A stretch of DNA of 64,000 nt. Source: an uncultured Candidatus Saccharibacteria bacterium. Lineage in GTDB: Bacteria; Patescibacteriota; Saccharimonadia; Saccharimonadales; Saccharimonadaceae. A program made the translations under genes and the position numbers. Within the stretch, counting starts at the first letter, position 1. Every line of letters starts with the position of its first letter. The notes under the pieces are model-generated. The model was not told the origin of the DNA. It saw only the letters and a list, made by a program, of their open reading frames with translations, and did not search any database. This document shows, one piece after another, positions 3,894 to 64,000 of the stretch. The stretch lies in NCBI GenBank assembly GCA_964558365.1, contig CAZLCC010000010.1:5361-69360 (forward strand), in the 5' to 3' direction.

Positions 3894-4748
3894 ATGACAG
3901 AAGAAATAAATAAAACGCCAAATCAGCAAGAAAATAAAGAAGAAAATATTTTTATTGCTAATCCTGAGCCACCCAAGAAAGCAAAAACGAATACTGTGCT
4001 TTTAGCGGTGATAGCAACTATTACTTTTGTCATAGTTATCGTGGTCGCTATAATGCTCTGGTCTTTAAGTGCGGCCAACCAAGCAGCAAAAAAACATGAA
4101 CTTGCAGCGCAAGAACAAGTTTCAGGCTTGCAAGTCGCGCTTGATATTTTAAAGCCAGATCAAGTAGTAAATAATAAAAGTTTAGAACCGATATTACAAA
4201 AGATAGAAGAGTTGAAGCCGCCTAAACTAAGCAGTGTTTTCTTTGCTTCAACGCTCAGCGCGCAGTATAGGGTGGCAGAAGAAACAAACCAACAGGTTCA
4301 GAAACATTACGATTCTTTGCGTGAATATGTGGAAGACGCTGTACTTTCGGTTGAATTTAGCGATCAAATGAATAAAGTTCAAGCAGAGGCAAAAAATGCT
4401 GTAGAGGGCACACAGACACAAAATGCTGCTTCACTCCGTTCGCTTTCAGGCACTTACGGCAAGCTCGAGCAGCAGATTTTAGATAGCAATGCGCCCAGCC
4501 AATTTCAAGATCTTCAAGCGCAAATCGCAGAGCTATATGATGAGCAGGCTGATAATTATCAAAATTGGGCTGAGGCGGTTGAGCAAAATAAACCCGAAGA
4601 GATAGCAGAGATTCAAAAAGATATTGCCGAGAATAATAAAGATATAGAAGATCTAACCAGCGACGCAACATATATAGAACAATTCGAAGCATCATATAAA
4701 AACTTAGAAAAACAACAAAAAGCATTAGAAAAACGGCTGAATTCTTAA
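3894..4748 (+). CDS. membrane-anchored coiled-coil protein, hypothetical
   Basis: One N-terminal TM helix followed by a Q/E/K-rich helical region. No family motif. Confidence 0.6.
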   Translation: MTEEINKTPNQQENKEENIFIANPEPPKKAKTNTVLLAVIATITFVIVIVVAIMLWSLSAANQAAKKHELAAQEQVSGLQVALDILKPDQVVNNKSLEPILQKIEELKPPKLSSVFFASTLSAQYRVAEETNQQVQKHYDSLREYVEDAVLSVEFSDQMNKVQAEAKNAVEGTQTQNAASLRSLSGTYGKLEQQILDSNAPSQFQDLQAQIAELYDEQADNYQNWAEAVEQNKPEEIAEIQKDIAENNKDIEDLTSDATYIEQFEASYKNLEKQQKALEKRLNS

Positions 4749-5810: not shown

Positions 5811-6316
5811 GTGAAGTAATTCCTATTGTAGATGATCAAGATAAATTGATTGCTTATAAAGATCGTAAAGCAGTTGACTATACTAAAGATATATTTCAGT
5901 CATCTGCTTTGTGGGTTGTTAACTCTAATGGTGATATCTTACTGGCGCAGAGAAAGTTAACCAAAAGCAAAGATCCTGGTAAGTGGGGTCCAGCAGTCGC
6001 AGGCACGGTTGAAAAAGGCGAGGATTACGAAACGAATATTTACAAGGAAGCGGAAGAAGAGATTGGTCTCACTGGTTACAAATTTGAAAAGCTAGCTAAA
6101 GAAAAGCTTTCTGCTCCATATCCCTATCCACAGTTTGTGCAATGGTTTCAGGTGACCGTGGATAAGCCGATTGATTACTTCACCGCTCAACTGGAAGAGG
6201 TAGAAAAGATTGAATGGGTAGGGCGTAATTGGTTAATGAAAGATGTCCAGGAAAATCCAGAGAAATACATAACTAGCATGGGTCGGGCTCTGACGTTTTT
6301 AAGGAGATCTACATGA
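5807..6316 (+). CDS. NUDIX hydrolase
   Basis: Nudix box GTVEKGEDYETNIYKEAEEEIGL (Gx5Ex7[RK]EAxEEIG). Its start overlaps the pheS stop (ATGA). Confidence 0.85.
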   Translation: MSEVIPIVDDQDKLIAYKDRKAVDYTKDIFQSSALWVVNSNGDILLAQRKLTKSKDPGKWGPAVAGTVEKGEDYETNIYKEAEEEIGLTGYKFEKLAKEKLSAPYPYPQFVQWFQVTVDKPIDYFTAQLEEVEKIEWVGRNWLMKDVQENPEKYITSMGRALTFLRRST

Positions 6317-8805
6317 TAATTTCACTAAATTGGCTAAAGCAGTTCACTAGTATTAACAGTTCGGTTGATGAATTAGCGACGCTAATTGGCGCGCGATTGG
6401 TTGAGATTGAAGAAGTAATTGACCTTGGTAAGAAATATGAAGATGTGATTGTGGCGAAAATCATGAGTGTTGAAAAGCACCCAGATGCAGATAAATTGCA
6501 TGTGGTACAGATTGATGACGGTGACAAAGCAAAAAGTGTGAAGCGACTAGAAAACGGCTTGGTGCAAGTGGTGTGCGGCGCGCCGAATGTGAAAGAGGGC
6601 ATGTTGGTTGCGTGGCTTCCACCTGGTGCTGCTGTGCCAGAAACGTTTGAGAGTGAACCGTTCGTGCTTGAAGCGCGCAAACTTCGGGGTGTGGTGAGCA
6701 ATGGCATGTTGGCAAGCGCCAAAGAGCTTGATTTTGGCGATGATCACACTGGGATTATTGAGATCGATAAAGACGCAAAACCAGGGGATTCTTTTGCAGA
6801 AATGTATGAACTAAATGACTACTTACTTGATATTGAAAATAAATCACTAACGCACCGGCCAGATTGCTTTGGCGTAATTGGCTTTGCCAGAGAAGTGGCA
6901 GCCATTCAGGGTAATGATTTTGAAACGCCAAAATGGCTAATGCAACTTGAGCCAAAACTAGCTGAAAAAGTAGCTAAAGACGACATGAACATTTCTGCAA
7001 AAGTTGAGAATGCTGACATTTGTGAGAGATATCAAGCGGTAATACTGAGCGGCGTGAATGCAAAGCTCCACTCGCCTCTTCAAATTCAAAGCTATTTAGC
7101 TCGAATTGGCATGAAGCCGATTAGCGCTGCGGTTGATACGACAAACTATTTAATGGCGTTAACTGGTCAGCCGCTGCATGCATTTGATTACGATAAATTT
7201 GTGTCAGTGAGTTCCACCAAAAAAGCAGATATTGTAGTACGTGAAGCAAAGAAAGGCGAGAAGTTAACATTGCTTGATGGGCGAGAGATTGAGCTTGCTG
7301 CTAGCGATATCATCGTTTGTGCTGGTAAAACGCCAGTTGCACTCGCAGGAGCAATGGGCGGCGCTAGTACGGAAGTTGATGAAAATACAAAAAATATTTT
7401 ACTTGAAAGCGCAACATTTGATCTGTATCGTCTTCGCACAACACAAATGCGACATGCAATTTATAGCGAAGCAATTACGCGATTTACAAAAGGGCAGTCT
7501 GCCGCACAAACTGCGCCGGTGCTGGCGAGCGCCGTGCGAATGCTCTGCGATATTACAGGCGCAAAACGGGCGAGCGATGTGGTTGACGTGCGCGAAAAGG
7601 CCAAGACTACAAAACCAATTGTGGTATCAATTTCAAAGATTGAAAAAACTTTAGGCGTTGACTTAGAGCTTGATGAAATTGCCGAGCCACTTGAGGTAGT
7701 AGAATTTACGCTGAACGTAGTGAACGAAGATATTGAAGTGACGCCACCATATTGGCGTGGCGATATACATATCGGCGAAGATGTGATTGAGGAAATTGGT
7801 CGTATCCGCGGATTTGACTCAATCTCCCCTACTCTGCCGCGCCGTGGATTTGAGGCTGTGCGACCAAGCGAGTTTGATGAATTTCGTTCTCGTTTGCGTC
7901 AAATTTTGGTGCGAGCTGGTGCGAATGAAGTACTGATGTATAGCTTTATTCACGGTGATATTTTGAAAAAAGCTGGTCAAGATCCAAAAAATTCATATCG
8001 AATCACCAACTCAATTAGCCCGGATCTGCAATACTATCGCCAAAGCTTAACGCCGAGTCTATTGAGCTTAGTGCATTCAAATGTTAAAAACGGTTTTTCT
8101 AGTTTTGCATTGTTTGAAATGAACAAAGCTCATAACAAGGTTCATGGCTTAAACGATGAAGGCGTTCCTGGCGAAATTAATATGCTTGCAGCTGTCATAA
8201 CGAGCAAAAAGCCAAAAAGCGGTGCGCCGTATTATCAAGCGAGAAAACTGCTAGAATATGTCGGTGATTATTTGGGACTGAAGCTTGAATATAAGCAACT
8301 AGAAAAAGATCTAAAATATCCAGTAACTGAGCCTTTTGATTATCGACGTTCGGCGATGGTGTATGATCAGCCGTCTGGTGAATTTGTGGGCATGATAGGC
8401 GAATACAAACGGTCGGTAATTAAAAACTTTAAATTGCCTGAATATAGCGCTGGACTTGAACTAGATCCAGAAGGGTTATTAAAAGCCGTTAAAAAACAAG
8501 CGAACAGCTACAAACCACTTAGCCGTTATCCTGGAACATGGCAAGATATTTGCTTCCAGCTAAAGCCAGAGCAAACATACGGCGAAGTAGTAGCTGAGAC
8601 AGAAAAAGTGCTTGAAAAAGAAGAGTTAGAATGGAGTATTTTACCGACAGATATCTATCAGCCTGAAGATGGCGCATATAAAAATATTACAATTAGAATT
8701 CACCTAACAGATCATACAAAAACGATTACTTCAAAAGAGGCGAATGAAGTAGTTGCAAAAGTTGTTGCGAGCGTGACAAAAACACTACACGCAAAAGTAA
8801 TCTAG
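6313..8805 (+). CDS. pheT: phenylalanine--tRNA ligase beta subunit
   Basis: N-terminal tRNA-binding OB domain, B3/4 and B5 domains, and a C-terminal anticodon-binding domain. 830 aa. Confidence 0.95.
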   Translation: MIISLNWLKQFTSINSSVDELATLIGARLVEIEEVIDLGKKYEDVIVAKIMSVEKHPDADKLHVVQIDDGDKAKSVKRLENGLVQVVCGAPNVKEGMLVAWLPPGAAVPETFESEPFVLEARKLRGVVSNGMLASAKELDFGDDHTGIIEIDKDAKPGDSFAEMYELNDYLLDIENKSLTHRPDCFGVIGFAREVAAIQGNDFETPKWLMQLEPKLAEKVAKDDMNISAKVENADICERYQAVILSGVNAKLHSPLQIQSYLARIGMKPISAAVDTTNYLMALTGQPLHAFDYDKFVSVSSTKKADIVVREAKKGEKLTLLDGREIELAASDIIVCAGKTPVALAGAMGGASTEVDENTKNILLESATFDLYRLRTTQMRHAIYSEAITRFTKGQSAAQTAPVLASAVRMLCDITGAKRASDVVDVREKAKTTKPIVVSISKIEKTLGVDLELDEIAEPLEVVEFTLNVVNEDIEVTPPYWRGDIHIGEDVIEEIGRIRGFDSISPTLPRRGFEAVRPSEFDEFRSRLRQILVRAGANEVLMYSFIHGDILKKAGQDPKNSYRITNSISPDLQYYRQSLTPSLLSLVHSNVKNGFSSFALFEMNKAHNKVHGLNDEGVPGEINMLAAVITSKKPKSGAPYYQARKLLEYVGDYLGLKLEYKQLEKDLKYPVTEPFDYRRSAMVYDQPSGEFVGMIGEYKRSVIKNFKLPEYSAGLELDPEGLLKAVKKQANSYKPLSRYPGTWQDICFQLKPEQTYGEVVAETEKVLEKEELEWSILPTDIYQPEDGAYKNITIRIHLTDHTKTITSKEANEVVAKVVASVTKTLHAKVI

Positions 8806-8845
8806 CTTGGTATAATAGAAAAACATGAAACGATAAGGAGGGAAT

Positions 8846-9421
8846 GTGGCGACTACAAAGACACAGAGGGTTGGTATTTGGATAATTGCGATTGTTATGT
8901 TGGTAAGCACCATTGCGATGTTTCTTGGAATGATTTTAGCAAATCAGAACCAGGCTAAAGATAGCCAAGACCAAGCAGATACGCAAAAACAACTAGAGGA
9001 ATATCAGAAGAAACTTGAAGAGCAGGCGAAAGCGAATGCAGCTGCGTCTGAGCCACTAGATGGATACAGCGCTTCTTCTTTTGATGCAGCGAGTGTTAAA
9101 AAGTTGCAGGTACAAGAGTTGAAGCCTGGTACTGGCAAAGCAGCAGCTGAAAATAGCACTGTATCTGTAAACTATTTTGGCTGGACACCAAACGGTAAAA
9201 TTTTTGATAGTTCAAAAAAGAATGGCAAAGTAGAGCCGATAGAGTTCCCTCTTAACCAAGTTATTAAAGGTTGGACTCAGGGGCTTACGGGCGTAAAAGA
9301 AGGTGCGGTAGTAAAACTTACTATTCCAGCCGATCTTGCATATGGTGAACAGGGCAGCCCACCAAATATTCAGCCTAATGAGCCCCTAGTATTTATTGTA
9401 GAAATGAAGAAAGTACAATAA
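8846..9421 (+). CDS. FKBP-type peptidyl-prolyl isomerase, membrane anchored
   Basis: C-terminal FKBP domain (VSVNYFGW..GKIFDSS..IKGW..IPADLAYG). N-terminal TM helix. GTG start 5 nt after AAGGAGGG. Confidence 0.85.
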   Translation: MATTKTQRVGIWIIAIVMLVSTIAMFLGMILANQNQAKDSQDQADTQKQLEEYQKKLEEQAKANAAASEPLDGYSASSFDAASVKKLQVQELKPGTGKAAAENSTVSVNYFGWTPNGKIFDSSKKNGKVEPIEFPLNQVIKGWTQGLTGVKEGAVVKLTIPADLAYGEQGSPPNIQPNEPLVFIVEMKKVQ

Positions 9422-37318: not shown

Positions 37319-38448
37319 ACAATTACTTTTGCAATTGCGGGCACAAGCTCCTTATTCATAATTGAAGGAATAATTTCATCTGGATTTGGATTTTTAACTA
37401 AGCTTGCAATTGTTTCAGCAGCTGCAATTTTATGCTCATCAGTGATTTTTTGCACTCCGTTATCAAGTGCGCCACGAAATATACCAGGGAAGGCAAGTGC
37501 GTTATTCACTTGATTTGGTAAATCGCTTCTACCCGTAGCAAGCACTGCTACGCCAGCTTCTTTTGCGAGCTGAGGACTAATTTCCGGGTTAGGATTTGCA
37601 AGAGCAAATACAATCGGATTATCAGCCATTCTTTTAATGTGTTCTTTTGTTAATAAATCAGCTTTACTAACGCCAATAAAAACATCAGCGTTTTCTAGCG
37701 TATTGCTTAGATCTCCATCAATATTGTTTGGGTTTGTGATGTCTAAGAGCTCTTTCTTTTGGCTATCTAAGCCAGTTCGATTTTGGCTAATTGCCCCTTT
37801 GCTGTCAACCAGAATAATTTCAGGCTTAGCATAGCGATGAAGCAGTTTTGTGATTGCTGTTCCAGCCGCACCAGCGCCAACAATCACAATTTTTGTTTCC
37901 TCAAGCTTTTTTCCCACAACTTTCACTGCATTAATCAGTCCAGCCAAAACAACGACCGCAGTGCCGTGTTGGTCGTCATGAAATACAGGAATATCAAGCT
38001 CAGTTTTTAGTCTTTCTTCAATTTCAAAACACTTTGGTGCCGCAAAATCTTCAAGATTAATTGCGCCAAAACTTGGTGCAATATTTTTAATTGTTTGAAT
38101 AATTTCTTCAGTATTCTGCGTATTAAGCACAATTGGCACAGAATCAATGTTTGCAAAATGTTTAAATAGTAGTGCCTTACCTTCCATTACTGGCATACTG
38201 GCTTTGCCGCCAATGTTGCCAAGTCCCAAAACGGAAGAGCCGTCAGAAATAACTGCTACCAAATTATTCGTCCAGGTATATTCTTTTAACTTATTCGGAT
38301 TTTCGGCAATTGCTTTACTTATGGCCGCTACGCCGGGTGTGTAATAGGCGCTTAATTTTTCTTGATCAATGACTTCATCGCGAAGTTTTGTTGTAATCTT
38401 GCCTTTATTTTTTTTATGAAGTTCTAGGGCCTTTTCATCAATACTCAT
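37315..38448 (-). CDS. maeB: NAD(P)-dependent malic enzyme (short form)
   Basis: YTPGVA, VVSDGSxVLGLGNIG-type motif (VISDGSSVLGLGNIG), and GAGAAG NAD site. Start set at the ATG at 38448 (MSIDEKALE), 10 nt after a TATACT box. Confidence 0.9.
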   Translation of the reverse strand: MSIDEKALELHKKNKGKITTKLRDEVIDQEKLSAYYTPGVAAISKAIAENPNKLKEYTWTNNLVAVISDGSSVLGLGNIGGKASMPVMEGKALLFKHFANIDSVPIVLNTQNTEEIIQTIKNIAPSFGAINLEDFAAPKCFEIEERLKTELDIPVFHDDQHGTAVVVLAGLINAVKVVGKKLEETKIVIVGAGAAGTAITKLLHRYAKPEIILVDSKGAISQNRTGLDSQKKELLDITNPNNIDGDLSNTLENADVFIGVSKADLLTKEHIKRMADNPIVFALANPNPEISPQLAKEAGVAVLATGRSDLPNQVNNALAFPGIFRGALDNGVQKITDEHKIAAAETIASLVKNPNPDEIIPSIMNKELVPAIAKVIV

Positions 38449-38563
38449 ACTAACCAATAGTATATGGTTTTTGCTTTTATAACTAGTTGTTTTTGGGTTA
38501 TTTCTTCTCAAAAATCCTTAAAAAGATTAAGAACTTATGAGAAGGACAGAATATATCCCTGCG

Positions 38564-38592
38564 GGGGACGGAGGTGCAGTTCCTCCGTCCCC
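38564..38592. repeat. perfect 11-bp-stem hairpin (GGGGACGGAGG / CCTCCGTCCCC, 7-nt loop)
   Basis: Read directly from the sequence. Lies 14 nt downstream of the orphan ORF stop on the minus strand. No U-tract on either strand. Confidence 0.85.
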
Positions 38593-38605
38593 ATTCCCCG
38601 AGAGT

Positions 38606-38983
38606 TCAGGGAATTCCAATCGCCAGCACTTTGCTGTGATCGCAGCAAAGTATGACTGACTCTAGGTTAGGGAAGACCTCTTTCAGCTCAGTGTATTCAC
38701 CATTCTTGAAAGTATCTCCCAGTGGCAAATTGATGTTGACCACTGCCACCTGAACATTTTCGGGCTTCTCCTTGGTTGTGGCAGCAAAGACTTTCCCGGC
38801 AGTCTCGAAGGCTTTGCTGCCCGCACCCAAGAGATACTGAACCAGTGTTGCCTGTGGTTCGTCCTCTCCTTTCAGGAAGGCTGCCTTCACATGGCTAGCT
38901 TTCACATGGCGCTGTGCTTCAGAGAGCACTCGTCCATTGAGGACGTCAGCGGCACCGAGAACAACGACTCCTGGCATCTGCAT
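38606..38983 (-). CDS. orphan 125-aa protein of unknown family, compositionally foreign
   Basis: Intact ORF with SD GGAGAGGTGA. G/C-ending codon preference, unlike its neighbours. The last codons lie in a 9-bp-stem hairpin (38628-38651). Confidence 0.6.
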   Translation of the reverse strand: MQMPGVVVLGAADVLNGRVLSEAQRHVKASHVKAAFLKGEDEPQATLVQYLLGAGSKAFETAGKVFAATTKEKPENVQVAVVNINLPLGDTFKNGEYTELKEVFPNLESVILCCDHSKVLAIGIP

Positions 38984-39189
38984 ACCGTCACCTCTCCTCA
39001 GGGTCTATATTCTGTCAAAAATCTATTCAAGCATTGCTGCTCAAACTTTTGTTATCTTAATAATAAACAAAGATAATGTCAATCATCGCCACTTAAACTT
39101 ATAATAATTAACCCCTTTCACATCTGAAGATTTGTGCTATAATGGCTAGTTGAATAGTTAATAATAAAGTTTTAAGCGAGAGAAGAAGA

Positions 39190-39621
39190 ATGAGTTTTGC
39201 ATTAATTCAAAAGGTAAATAATGCCCAGAAAAAGGCGAAAGTAGTTGACGTTCGTACCGGTGACACCGTGCGTGTGCACCAAAAAATTAAAGAAGGCAAT
39301 AAAGAGCGCGTTCAGGTGTTTGAAGGCGTAGTATTGCGTACTGACCGCAAGAATTCGCACACTAGCCGTATCACAGTTCGTAAAGTTGCAAGCGGTATTG
39401 GTGTTGAAAAGAGCTTTTTACTCCACAGCCCATTGGTTGAAAAAGTTGAAGTAACAAAACGAAGTAAAGTTCGCCGCAAGTATCTTAGCTTTCTCCGCGC
39501 ACGAAGCGGAAAAAGCGCTCGTCTTAAGGCAGTTGATTTTGATAAAAAGGCGGTGAATGATGTAAGCGTTCCTGAGCCAAAAGAGCAGCCAAAGGAAGAA
39601 AAGGCTGAAGACAAGAAGTAA
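39190..39621 (+). CDS. rplS: 50S ribosomal protein L19 with K/E-rich C-terminal extension
   Basis: GDTVRVHQKIKEGNKERVQVFEGVV L19 signature. TGTGCTATAAT extended -10 upstream. Confidence 0.95.
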   Translation: MSFALIQKVNNAQKKAKVVDVRTGDTVRVHQKIKEGNKERVQVFEGVVLRTDRKNSHTSRITVRKVASGIGVEKSFLLHSPLVEKVEVTKRSKVRRKYLSFLRARSGKSARLKAVDFDKKAVNDVSVPEPKEQPKEEKAEDKK

Positions 39622-39687: not shown

Positions 39688-40593
39688 ATGATTGTTGGAA
39701 TTGATGAAGTTGGGCGTGGTGCATGGGCTGGGCCATTGGTGGTTGGAGCGGTGGCTCTTGGCGGTAATGAGATTGAGGGCTTAACAGATAGCAAAAAGCT
39801 TACAGCTAAAAAGCGACAAACGCTTTCTGGCATTATTCGTGAGGCCACGCCACATATTGGGTTAGGTTGGGTCTCGGCGCAAACGATTGACAAAATTGGG
39901 CTTTCAACGGCACTTAAGGTGGCTGCTAGAAAAGCGCTTGATGAAATTAAAGCAGAATATGATGAGATTATTATTGACGGCACCATTAAGTTGATCGATG
40001 ATCCGCGAGTGTCGACGCTAAAGCAGGCGGATTTGTTGGTACCTAGCGTTTCAGCGGCTTCAATCATTGCAAAAGTGGCAAGAGATTATTATATGCAAAA
40101 AATCTCGGCTGATTATCCTGAGTATGGCTTTGAAAAGCATGTTGGTTATGGCACGAAATTCCACCGCGATGCAATCGCAAAACATGGATCAAGCGATCTA
40201 CATAGAATGAGTTTTTCGCCCATGAATGAAATTGTGGCATCGCCAAAACCAGCAAATAAAAGTATTGGGCAAATAGCTGAAGATGAAGCGGCAAAATATT
40301 TGCAGAATAAGGGCTATAAAATTATTGATAGAAATTGGAAAACGAAATATTGTGAGATTGATATTATTGCCAAGAAAGATAACGTTATTTATTTTGTTGA
40401 AGTGAAATACCGCAGACAAGAAAATCAAGGCGGTGGTATCGCGGCAATTACGCCCAAGAAACTAAAGCAAATGCAATTTGCCGCTACTTTATGGCAAGCG
40501 AATCACTCGCAAATTAGGGAAGATGTGCAACTTGCAGCACTTAGTATGAAAAGTGAGCTACCAAAAGTAGAAAGCTTTTTAAATATTACGTAG
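39688..40593 (+). CDS. rnhB: ribonuclease HII fused to YraN (UPF0102) endonuclease-like domain
   Basis: N-terminal GIDEVGRGAWAGPL, DSKKL and IIIDG RNase HII motifs (aa 1-190). The C-terminal part (from nt ~40267) carries GQIAEDEAAKYLQNKGYKIIDRNWK..CEIDIIA..FVEVKYR, the YraN signature. Confidence 0.85.
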   Translation: MIVGIDEVGRGAWAGPLVVGAVALGGNEIEGLTDSKKLTAKKRQTLSGIIREATPHIGLGWVSAQTIDKIGLSTALKVAARKALDEIKAEYDEIIIDGTIKLIDDPRVSTLKQADLLVPSVSAASIIAKVARDYYMQKISADYPEYGFEKHVGYGTKFHRDAIAKHGSSDLHRMSFSPMNEIVASPKPANKSIGQIAEDEAAKYLQNKGYKIIDRNWKTKYCEIDIIAKKDNVIYFVEVKYRRQENQGGGIAAITPKKLKQMQFAATLWQANHSQIREDVQLAALSMKSELPKVESFLNIT

Positions 40594-63089: not shown

Positions 63090-64000
63090 ATGCAGCGCAT
63101 AACCGTCTTGTTGTTATTTGGCGGCGAATCGGCAGAGCACGAAGTGTCTATTGCCTCGGCTCGAAATGTGTTTGCAGCTCTTGATGATGAAAAGTTTGAT
63201 GTAAAGTTGGGTTTTATTGATAAAGCGGGAAAGTGGTGGCTTTTGCCAGCGCTTGAGCAAGTAGTTTCAACGCATGGACATCCGCAACTTGTGCCAGTTC
63301 TTGGCACTGGTCAGCTTACAACATTACCAGAGACGATTACGCTGCAGCCAGATGTTGTTTTGCCAATTCTTCACGGCCCGAACGGTGAGGACGGTACAAT
63401 TCAGGGGCTTGCCAAGCTGCTTCACGTGCCAATTGTAGGTAATGGGGTTGCCGCCTCGGCAATTTGTATGGATAAGGACTTTACCAAGCAAGTGCTTCAA
63501 AAGGCAAACCTCCCAACGGTTGATGGCAAAGTGCTCTATGCTTTTAATAACCATCCGTCATATGAAGATACGAAAGAAAAGTTAGGAGATGTGTTATTTG
63601 TAAAACCGGCTAATCTTGGTTCTTCGGTTGGAGTATATAAAGTCAAAAATCAAGAAGAATGGGAAGACGCGCTAGCCGGAGCATTTTTACATGACGAAAA
63701 AGTGCTTGTTGAGCGCGCGGTAGATGCAAAAGAGCTAGAGGCTGCTGTTTTGGGCGCCAAAAACAATATTGAGGTGAGTGGTGTAGGTGAAGTCAAGCCA
63801 GATGCAGAATTTTATAGCTATGAATCAAAATATGATGCTTCGAGCCAGTCAAAAATAATTATACCGGCAGAAATAGACGAAGCGACGACGGAAAAAATAC
63901 GCGACTACGCAAAGCAGGCATTTCAAGCTGTTGGTGGTGCAGGAATGGCGCGAGTTGATTTCTTTTTAGATGATCAGGGGAAGATTTATATTAACGAAAT
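63090..64000 (+). CDS. ddl: D-alanine--D-alanine ligase (5' partial, runs off the window)
   Basis: Hand translation from the ATG at 63090 gives MQRITVLLLFGGESAEHEVSIASARNV..., later GPNGEDGTIQGLAKLLHVP and an ATP-grasp region. It is absent from the ORF track because there is no stop codon inside the window. Confidence 0.9.
   Translation, partial: MQRITVLLLFGGESAEHEVSIASARNVFAALDDEKFDVKLGFIDKAGKWWLLPALEQVVSTHGHPQLVPVLGTGQLTTLPETITLQPDVVLPILHGPNGEDGTIQGLAKLLHVPIVGNGVAASAICMDKDFTKQVLQKANLPTVDGKVLYAFNNHPSYEDTKEKLGDVLFVKPANLGSSVGVYKVKNQEEWEDALAGAFLHDEKVLVERAVDAKELEAAVLGAKNNIEVSGVGEVKPDAEFYSYESKYDASSQSKIIIPAEIDEATTEKIRDYAKQAFQAVGGAGMARVDFFLDDQGKIYINE

Follow-up and report, generated by a model that had tools for sequence, protein, structure and literature searches.

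A short G+C-rich segment with a single open reading frame (ORF) of 125 codons lies between maeB, which encodes malic enzyme, and rplS, which encodes ribosomal protein L19, in a 64,000-nucleotide stretch of DNA (the window) from an uncultured Candidatus Saccharibacteria bacterium, and is bracketed by an inverted repeat. What kind of element is it, and what do the two arms of its repeat do? Phage morons are independent promoter-ORF-terminator units between conserved genes, often of deviant G+C content. We consider it slightly better than an even chance that the segment belongs to a moron-like unit that occupies variable intergenic spots, that the messenger RNA (mRNA) of this unit is closed by a long-range stem between its 5′ and 3′ parts, and that its coding part is exchanged as alleles.

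Complementarity between leader and trailer

The architecture of the unit was compared over 11 distinct loci with DNA, the window included (other loci are given by their L numbers). All 11 share one order of elements, namely a promoter, a 5′-end RNA hairpin, the left arm of the repeat, a Shine-Dalgarno (SD) sequence, the ORF, sometimes a GC hairpin, and the right arm. In the window, the repeat (38545-38555 and 39006-39016) comprises 11 nt that are 100% complementary, extended by CCCTG/CAGGG, and has only two perfect copies in 64 kb. Taken alone it is marginal, as a complementary run of at least 11 was obtained in 26 of 300 flank shuffles with G-U pairs allowed, and its significance therefore rests on the cross-locus comparison. 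The arm motif is absent elsewhere in the fetched loci, which comprise about 80 Saccharibacteria loci together with viral and metagenome contigs.

In ten of the 11 loci, the arms are complementary over 11 bp or more at the same position, and compensatory changes are seen. The left arm is separated from the start codon by 16-32 nt, and the right arm follows the stop codon at a distance of 9-71 nt; the leader and trailer of the same gene are complementary, as in mRNAs with paired 5′ and 3′ untranslated regions (UTRs). The window arms, GACAGAAUAUA/UAUAUUCUGUC, correspond to ...AUAC/GUAU... in L013, with a U-G intermediate in L011; L094 and L096 differ from each other (GAGAUUUACGGUACA versus GAGAUUUACAGUAUAG), each having a fitting partner, and L095 carries AGAAUACACCC/GGGUGUAUUCU. 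The compensatory changes include U-A, U-G and C-G at one position and A-U against G-C between L096 and L094, and a matched AA/TT indel separates the two clades. The inner extension of the arms is allele-specific yet complementary (CCCUG/CAGGG, AUCCCU/AGGGAU or ACACCC/GGGUGU). L104 has lost most of the outer pairs and has a new inner helix, TCCACA/TGTGGA.

We quantified these patterns in an alignment of the arms of the 11 loci, registered by hand on the ACAG/CTGT core, in which 67.8% of the cells pair, a share that falls to 28-45% on sliding the partner. Double-sided changes are found at 11 of 22 pairs, a count reached by none of 500 shuffles and standing at 2-6 in the slid controls. By this comparison, the arms covary like the two strands of one helix. 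When whole predicted transcripts were folded, the arms paired with a probability of at least 0.95 in all 11 loci.

Architecture of the unit

The features of the window copy are listed below in the direction of transcription.

39054..39082, minus strand: unit promoter TTGACA-17 nt-TAAGAT, the top sigma-70-like match in the region (10/12)
39025..39046, minus strand: 5′-end RNA hairpin UUUGAGCA-GCAA-UGCUUGAA, beginning ~2 nt past the predicted transcription start and present in the minimum free energy (MFE) fold
38999..39016, minus strand: left (5′) arm GACAGAATATA + (GA) + CCCTG, covarying, conserved in 10/11 loci, predicted pair probability ~1.0
38988..38997, minus strand: Shine-Dalgarno sequence GGAGAGGTGA, read from the sequence, 4 nt 5′ of the ATG at 38983
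38606..38983, minus strand: G+C-rich 125-aa ORF of a lineage-restricted orphan family, characterized by its ratio of nonsynonymous to synonymous substitution rates (dN/dS), a predicted flavodoxin-like fold and structured RNA
38628-38651: hairpin in the last codons, found where it had been read
38593..38614, minus strand: small hairpin ATTCCC/GGGAAT across the stop codon, present in the MFE fold
38564..38592, minus strand: perfect GC hairpin of 11 bp, located in the 3′ UTR, not followed by a U-tract and unique in the window
38545..38561, minus strand: right (3′) arm CAGGG + (AT) + ATATTCTGTC, complementary to the left arm
38504..38544, minus strand: 17-bp AU-rich hairpin CUUCUCAUAAGUUCUUAA...UUAAGGAUUUUUGAGAAG, abutting the right arm and nearly invariant in clade A

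The repeats, three hairpins, ORF and SD of an earlier sequence-only reading of this DNA were each recovered at their positions, and the repeats and the 29-nt hairpin, for which it had proposed a copy-number search, are unique in the 64-kb window. The promoter is kept as TTGACA-N17-TAA(G/A)AT in all clade-A loci and in the loci where the unit lies next to pheT (see below). The stem of the GC hairpin, GGGACGGAG(A/G)...(U/C)CUCCGUCCC, recurs in L094, L096 and L104 with a compensatory A-U/G-C change and a variable loop, and is absent from the other clade-A alleles. Because no U-tract follows it, this hairpin would not be a canonical terminator.

Two further sequence features of the window were observed. 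The left arm and the T residues preceding it (39011-39018, minus strand) form TTGACAG, a perfect -35 hexamer with no fitting -10 element after it. A 22-nt direct repeat of 77% identity (38468-38489 and 39131-39152) brackets the whole unit, one copy overlapping the rplS -10 region, and L011 has a GAAAGGGGTGA / AAAAAGGTGAA pair at the equivalent places; this repeat could be a relic of an insertion event, or chance.

Structure of the predicted transcript

The predicted transcript of 544 nt has a folding energy of -226.8 kcal/mol, compared with -171.1±5.6 kcal/mol for dinucleotide shuffles (z = -10.0). Coding regions alone yielded z values of -1.5 to -6.4 over 10 homologues (mean -3.2; -3.0 for the window), and 39 host coding pieces of 390 nt, used as a control, yielded +0.2±1.1 with a minimum of -2.3. 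These folds point to an unusually structured messenger in which the G+C enrichment goes with structure.

The elements outside the arms also behave as RNA. RNAalifold predicted 9 pairs for the 5′ hairpin over 9 loci, 3 of them with double-sided changes, and many are G-U pairs that exist on the sense strand only (the opposite strand would have C-A). For the AU hairpin past the right arm, 17 pairs are predicted; its loop varies in length, and it likewise contains sense-only G-U pairs. An RNA reading of the arms is favoured because the elements on both sides of them are sense-strand RNA structures. No canonical U-tract terminator was found before the right arm, and since the GC hairpin lacks a U-tract and no terminator precedes the arm, transcription should reach it. 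Rfam returned chance-level matches only, both for the whole window and in a permissive search of 38300-39300. An inner helix between the SD and the region after the stop codon was considered and is not established, RNAduplex on whole UTRs being dominated by non-specific extended pairing.

Distribution and genomic contexts

The rplS-maeB gap measures 86-221 bp in about 55 of 80 Saccharibacteria loci, where the two genes are divergent neighbours and maeB directly follows a TATAAT box, and 708-742 bp where the ORF is present. Empty sites, for which the sequence-only reading had suggested looking in relatives, are thus the norm. Carriage is patchy, as some non-carriers are as close to the window in maeB as carriers are: the first 110 aa encoded by maeB in L025, which has no insert (92-bp gap), share 86% identity with those of the window, and for the carriers L098 and L095 the figure is 77-78%.

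In L094, L096, L104 and L105, the unit sits downstream of pheT rather than between rplS and maeB. Homology between the two contexts takes in the promoter, where it begins ~65 nt beyond the left arm, and stops a few bases past the right arm. Because between-context similarity begins at the promoter and passes the right arm, the inverted repeats are internal features of a full transcription unit. The pheT-side insertion site is empty in the window genome, since the next ORF follows pheT (6313-8805) after 40 bp (8805-8846).

The rplS-maeB spacer is a variable spot, as other lineages hold unrelated inserts there. Such inserts, of 364-2220 bp, were observed in 12 of the 80 loci: L016 (3405-4001), L021, L024, L026, L039, L043, L044, L051, L059, L066, L072 and L076. 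Among them are a 105-aa ORF with a strong terminator (L016), small reverse-strand ORFs and genes of 297-557 aa. In L106 (726-1145), a GNAT acetyltransferase gene (PF00583) is inserted between the AU hairpin of the unit and maeB, which therefore represents further turnover at the same spot.

Two observations concern the DNA next to the unit. In the empty-site genomes L017 (e.g. 3913-4001), L019, L028 and L073, maeB begins 6 nt after a TATAAT/TATACT box, a spacing that points to a leaderless mRNA; the window has TATACT 10 nt ahead of the maeB ATG. In the pheT context, a non-coding stretch of ~650 nt follows the unit on its 3′ side (L094 2089-2715, L104 4480-5135; its start in L096 1014-1093), with a TTGCAT-N17-TAAAAT promoter of its own and complementary motifs of the GGGGAAG/CTTCCCC type, and is 72% identical between two genomes. 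Rfam gave no match to this stretch even at E = 1, and the window lacks a counterpart; it may be an undescribed structured RNA.

A phage origin found no backing in IMG/VR, which gave no match to the unit promoter pattern and no relative of the protein; the GC-hairpin pattern matched 69 viral sequences, all of them unrelated hairpins that lack a homologous ORF. A scan of JGI metagenomes with the promoter pattern returned 4 chance matches only.

Exchange of alleles within a conserved frame

The non-coding flanks of the unit are near-invariant as far as either arm; in the stretch between the two arms, similarity collapses. The protein inside this near-invariant module diverges fast, its alleles being only 40-50% identical between close relatives. 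L013 and L097 have low synonymous divergence (dS) in the flanks (0.26 in rplS, 0.57 in maeB), but the synonymous sites of their ORFs are saturated (proportion of synonymous differences, pS, 0.77) and the proteins are 42% identical. Conversely, L013 and L098 have a maeB dS of 1.8, but an ORF dS of 0.78 and proteins that are 88.5% identical. We conclude that alleles are exchanged because the genealogy of the ORF is incongruent with that of its flanks. In these comparisons, the switch points coincide with the arms or lie close to them. The exchange is probably due to homologous recombination in the conserved flanking non-coding DNA, which is a sufficient explanation for it.

Locus and base composition

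Relatives of the flanking malic-enzyme gene all come from Saccharibacteria (TM7) genomes. The gene order around the ORF is NusA, peptidase M1, RNase HII-YraN, rplS, ORF, maeB, type II secretion system (T2SS)-E ATPase, SpoU and DnaE, and an identical ORF occurs in this order on the 10 contigs examined, from several samples. Its immediate neighbours are the malic enzyme (PF00390/PF03949) and ribosomal protein L19 (PF01245). In agreement with the sequence-only reading, which had noticed no transposase or integrase nearby, there is no recombinase gene within ±6 kb of the ORF. In the same region (39688-40593), RNase HII (PF01351) is fused to a YraN/UPF0102 endonuclease-like domain (PF02021), and the fusion is kept in related loci.

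The G+C content peaks at 0.54 over 38700-38999, versus 0.36-0.44 on both sides (300-bp profile). The ORF has a G+C content of 0.519, compared with 0.417±0.035 for 378-bp windows; this places it in the top 0.17% and makes significant the compositional deviation that had been noticed by eye between the maeB and rplS promoters. The preference for G- or C-ending codons also held up, as the G+C content at third codon positions (GC3) is 0.548 in the ORF and 0.343±0.030, with a maximum of 0.414, in 48 host ORFs of at least 150 aa. The 125-aa ORF is the sole genuine GC3 outlier among 63 non-overlapping ORFs of the window. A second candidate, a 76-aa ORF at 63324-63554 (minus strand) with a GC3 of 0.645, is an artefact that lies antisense to a D-Ala-D-Ala ligase-like gene (ddl), which itself runs off the window end.

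The alleles of the ORF have GC3 values of 0.49-0.67 in all their low-GC hosts despite ancient divergence, and the pheT-context copies have host-like values of 0.42-0.47. Because synonymous-saturated alleles stay GC3-rich in low-GC hosts, we reject a simple lack of amelioration as the cause of this composition, and un-ameliorated foreign DNA alone would seem insufficient to account for the G+C excess of the ORF.

The orphan protein

The family of the 125-aa protein is very small. Four relatives were found among 5.8 billion clustered proteins, about ten true relatives in an exhaustive profile search of 1.84 billion representatives and nine in a second, word-indexed profile search, for a family of ~14 proteins in all. 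The giant HYR-repeat proteins P0011, P0013, P0015 and P0016 were rejected as relatives, their matches in the exhaustive search being repeat-inflated. Members are 125-141 aa long, bar the 92-aa P0010, which is apparently N-terminally truncated, and conserve the motifs LNG, LLGAG, NLPLGD-F and FPNL. A putative conserved pocket comprises N16-G17, G53, L88-G89-D90, Y97 and F104-P105.

The view that the ORF cannot be placed in any family was borne out by both sequence-profile and AlphaFold/Foldseek searches, none of which gave a significant match. The best E values were 0.16 in Pfam, 0.12 in NCBIfam, 0.015 in PADLOC, 0.028 in PHROGs and 0.053 in a sequence profile search of the PDB. Foldseek searches of the PDB and BFVD with two AlphaFold models found no relative (TM scores at most 0.44), and the best E value, 0.013 with the better model, reflected only a generic flavodoxin-like resemblance. 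The AlphaFold model computed from 14 sequences has a predicted local distance difference test (pLDDT) score of 81.7 and a predicted TM score (pTM) of 0.77, and depicts the protein as a βαβ flavodoxin-like α/β domain, predicted to be soluble.

The dN/dS ratio is 0.07 between L013 and L099 and 0.05-0.13 within another allele class, which argues that the ORF is a real gene under purifying selection. P0014 (L176 1-707), in which the first 34 codons of an L099-type ORF are joined to unrelated G+C-rich DNA, was considered as a recombinant junction and discarded; it lies on a contig of 1.4x coverage and is most likely an assembly chimera.

A working model of the closed messenger

With its own promoter, empty sites in relatives and a deviant GC3 (0.55 vs 0.34), the unit has the properties of a moron-like element. 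In the model that we propose, the two arms would join the 5′ and 3′ UTRs of one transcript in a long-range helix of 11-17 bp. The entire coding region would thereby be enclosed in a G+C-enriched fold of great stability, and the helix would adjoin the 5′ hairpin and stack on the AU hairpin. Two roles are most likely for this closing stem. Together with these two hairpins it might define and protect the mRNA ends, by way of an RNase III-type processing site and exonuclease-resistant ends, and the unit would be insulated from maeB. Alternatively, the closing stem might keep the mRNA stable but translationally restrained. Pairing of the arms within the RNA of living cells, and the effect that it would have, are inferred from the sequences compared here.

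Several points weigh against this model. Registering the arm alignment by hand biases the covariation towards structure, and the transcripts had been trimmed to the right arm before folding, a choice that favours pairing of their ends. The long helix contains 5 G-U pairs versus 4 C-A mismatches, hence no strand asymmetry, and the same covariation would therefore be expected from a DNA-level need for two matching inverted sites. Where transcription starts, that it continues beyond the GC hairpin and that one RNA carries both arms are predictions. Co-transcriptional folding and translating ribosomes must both compete with a stem that spans ~450 nt, and 11-17 bp is short for a classical RNase III substrate. 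Finally, the orphan protein gives no clue to the purpose of the unit.

Alternative explanations

The arms could instead be DNA sites of a host site-specific recombinase, acting in pdif/Xer-like cassette exchange or on an invertible, phase-variable segment, and the promoter-less part (SD, ORF and hairpin) would then be swapped or flipped. Inverted sites bracket exactly the segment with the discordant genealogy, both arms covary as two sites of one protein would, G-U is not preferred over C-A in them, the promoter is next to the left arm on its outer side, as it would be in an on/off switch, and no nearby recombinase is necessary if a host Xer-type enzyme acts. We nevertheless regard this explanation as unlikely. 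All assembled carrier contigs examined show one orientation relative to the promoter and flanking genes; they comprise 10 from the window species and single ones for the other alleles, and every contig includes at least one flank. The arms differ between clades, and their inner part between alleles, and are still complementary, which is unusual for protein-recognition sites; each is a single element of 11-17 nt with no second half-site and no 11-6-11 dif-like layout; their motif is absent from all other fetched loci; and homologous recombination in the highly conserved flanks explains the exchange. Unlikely to much the same degree, if a trace more so, is an exchangeable gene cassette of a kind undescribed in the candidate phyla radiation (CPR) or in Saccharibacteria, with the arms as a signal for cassette turnover or maturation. 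A host recombinase could swap cassettes at the arms, or the hyper-structured mRNA could be excised or processed, conceivably circularised, and the G+C enrichment and excess coding-region structure would then be part of the mechanism rather than a foreign relic. An integron gene cassette was rejected in view of the unit's own promoter, the lack of an integrase within ±6 kb and the position of the repeats, which bracket the ORF in place of a single 3′ attC. We also doubt, somewhat more strongly, a special form of the RNA reading, a lock like that of the type I toxin-antitoxin system hok, in which the protein would be harmful or tightly dosed and the full-length mRNA stable and inert until processed. 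The principle is documented for hok (PMC9841398), and the predicted mRNA is extremely structured and stable-looking, with 5′-3′ pairing near the SD, in an autonomous unit with patchy distribution and allele turnover. The product, however, is a soluble α/β protein of 125-141 aa and not a short hydrophobic peptide, no convincing antisense promoter lies in or beside the ORF, the arm stops 16-32 nt 5′ of the start codon and leaves the SD uncovered, and there is no PADLOC or toxin-family match.

A pair of operators, whose DNA-binding regulator would form a DNA loop across the ORF and control the unit jointly with maeB, is quite improbable: neither arm is palindromic by itself, alleles differ in the length and inner sequence of the arms without loss of complementarity, copies next to pheT retain the arms where there is no maeB, and the adjacent conserved elements act as RNA hairpins, with variable loops and G-U pairs. 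The placement of one arm in the ORF leader and the other ~95 bp upstream of maeB would suit such operators, as would flanking non-coding DNA that is more conserved than the synonymous sites of the neighbouring genes. The sequence-only reading had offered a horizontally acquired passenger cassette, a miniature inverted-repeat transposable element (MITE)-like element or a decayed module. Its first part stands, in that the unit is an add-on with its own history, as indicated by empty sites, patchy carriage, pheT-context copies, conflicting genealogies and significant composition. The proposal of a MITE-like or decayed transposon, with the arms as terminal inverted repeats, is largely refuted and retains very little probability. 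Inverted repeats do bracket a compositionally foreign segment, empty sites exist, at least two genomic contexts are known and a weak 22-nt direct repeat (77% identity) surrounds the whole unit. Against these stand the homology between contexts, which extends past both arms (at the left by ~65 nt, taking in the promoter and 5′ hairpin), the single copy in the window with no motif in other fetched loci, the covariation of the arms, and arm borders (...ATTTTT/GACAG and CTGTC/CTTCTC) with no clear target-site duplication; searches of viral contigs gave no homologue, and the ORF is intact and under purifying selection (dN/dS 0.05-0.13), which also speaks against decay. Least credible of all is a structured non-coding RNA gene with a fortuitous ORF. 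The G+C-rich island in an A+T-rich genome, the closing stem and a z of -10 are what such a gene would show, but the ORF is open over 125-141 codons in all full-length members, its dN/dS is 0.05-0.13, its protein motifs are conserved and its fold is confidently predicted, and Rfam has no match.

Comparison with known systems

Our literature search found no relevant description of such an element in Saccharibacteria, and we therefore compared the moron-like unit with a closed messenger to systems from other organisms. Base pairing between the 5′ and 3′ UTRs regulates the Staphylococcus aureus icaR (PMC3868564) and Bacillus subtilis hbs (PMC5737220) mRNAs, where it affects ribonuclease access and translation (PMC3868564, PMC5737220); the hbs mRNA has a structured 5′ UTR plus a strong SD (PMC5737220). 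As in these mRNAs, the leader and trailer of the unit are complementary within one mRNA. Unlike theirs, the proposed helix of the unit is longer (11-17 bp), would lie upstream of the SD and not on it, and covaries across the alleles of a mobile orphan gene; the whole coding region is also predicted to be over-structured.

The hok mRNA of a type I toxin-antitoxin system is subject to fold-back inhibition by pairing of its 5′ and 3′ ends (PMC9841398). In the unit too, the predicted end pairing would lock a compact, very stable mRNA of a small autonomous element, with the differences that the product is no short membrane peptide, that no antisense RNA gene is evident and that the arm leaves the SD uncovered.

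The sequences flanking 16S and 23S rRNA form stalks that are processed by RNase III. These resemble the proposed stem in being long-range helices around a segment of ~0.5-3 kb that set mature ends in a longer transcript; in the unit, the proposed helix is shorter and would enclose a protein-coding mRNA, and its cleavage is putative. Morons share with the unit its autonomy, deviant composition, position between conserved neighbours and absence from relatives, but the unit is chromosomal, lies between housekeeping genes with no phage context, and has a proposed enclosing stem and no canonical terminator.

Among mobile elements, the pdif (Xer) modules of Acinetobacter plasmids have 28-bp inverse sites, each with two 11-bp arms around a 6-bp spacer. 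Like pdif modules and invertons, the unit has a gene bracketed by inverted sites, no dedicated recombinase near, several contexts and allele exchange; unlike them, it has no 11-6-11 layout and, in assembled contigs, no orientation polymorphism, and its sites vary yet stay complementary. With MITEs it has in common that it is short, bracketed by inverted repeats and devoid of a transposase, whereas it carries an intact, selected gene, its repeats are internal, it is single copy in the 64-kb window and it has no target-site duplication.

Saccharibacteria are ultra-small episymbionts with reduced genomes, and their gene regulation and gene exchange are little understood. The locus described here is a compact, portable and near-invariant expression module with an exchanged protein inside. 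If the stem works as we suppose, it would provide a clean natural case of 5′-3′ UTR pairing backed by covariation, and a ready stability or insulation element for engineering CPR bacteria. Allele turnover in a tiny lineage is the signature expected of a conflict or host-interaction factor, for which the protein is a candidate. Beyond the known kinds lie the persistent GC3 excess and the over-structured coding region. In its overall design, the unit belongs to none of the families to which it has been likened and combines two known kinds, a moron-like unit and an mRNA with 5′-3′ UTR pairing.

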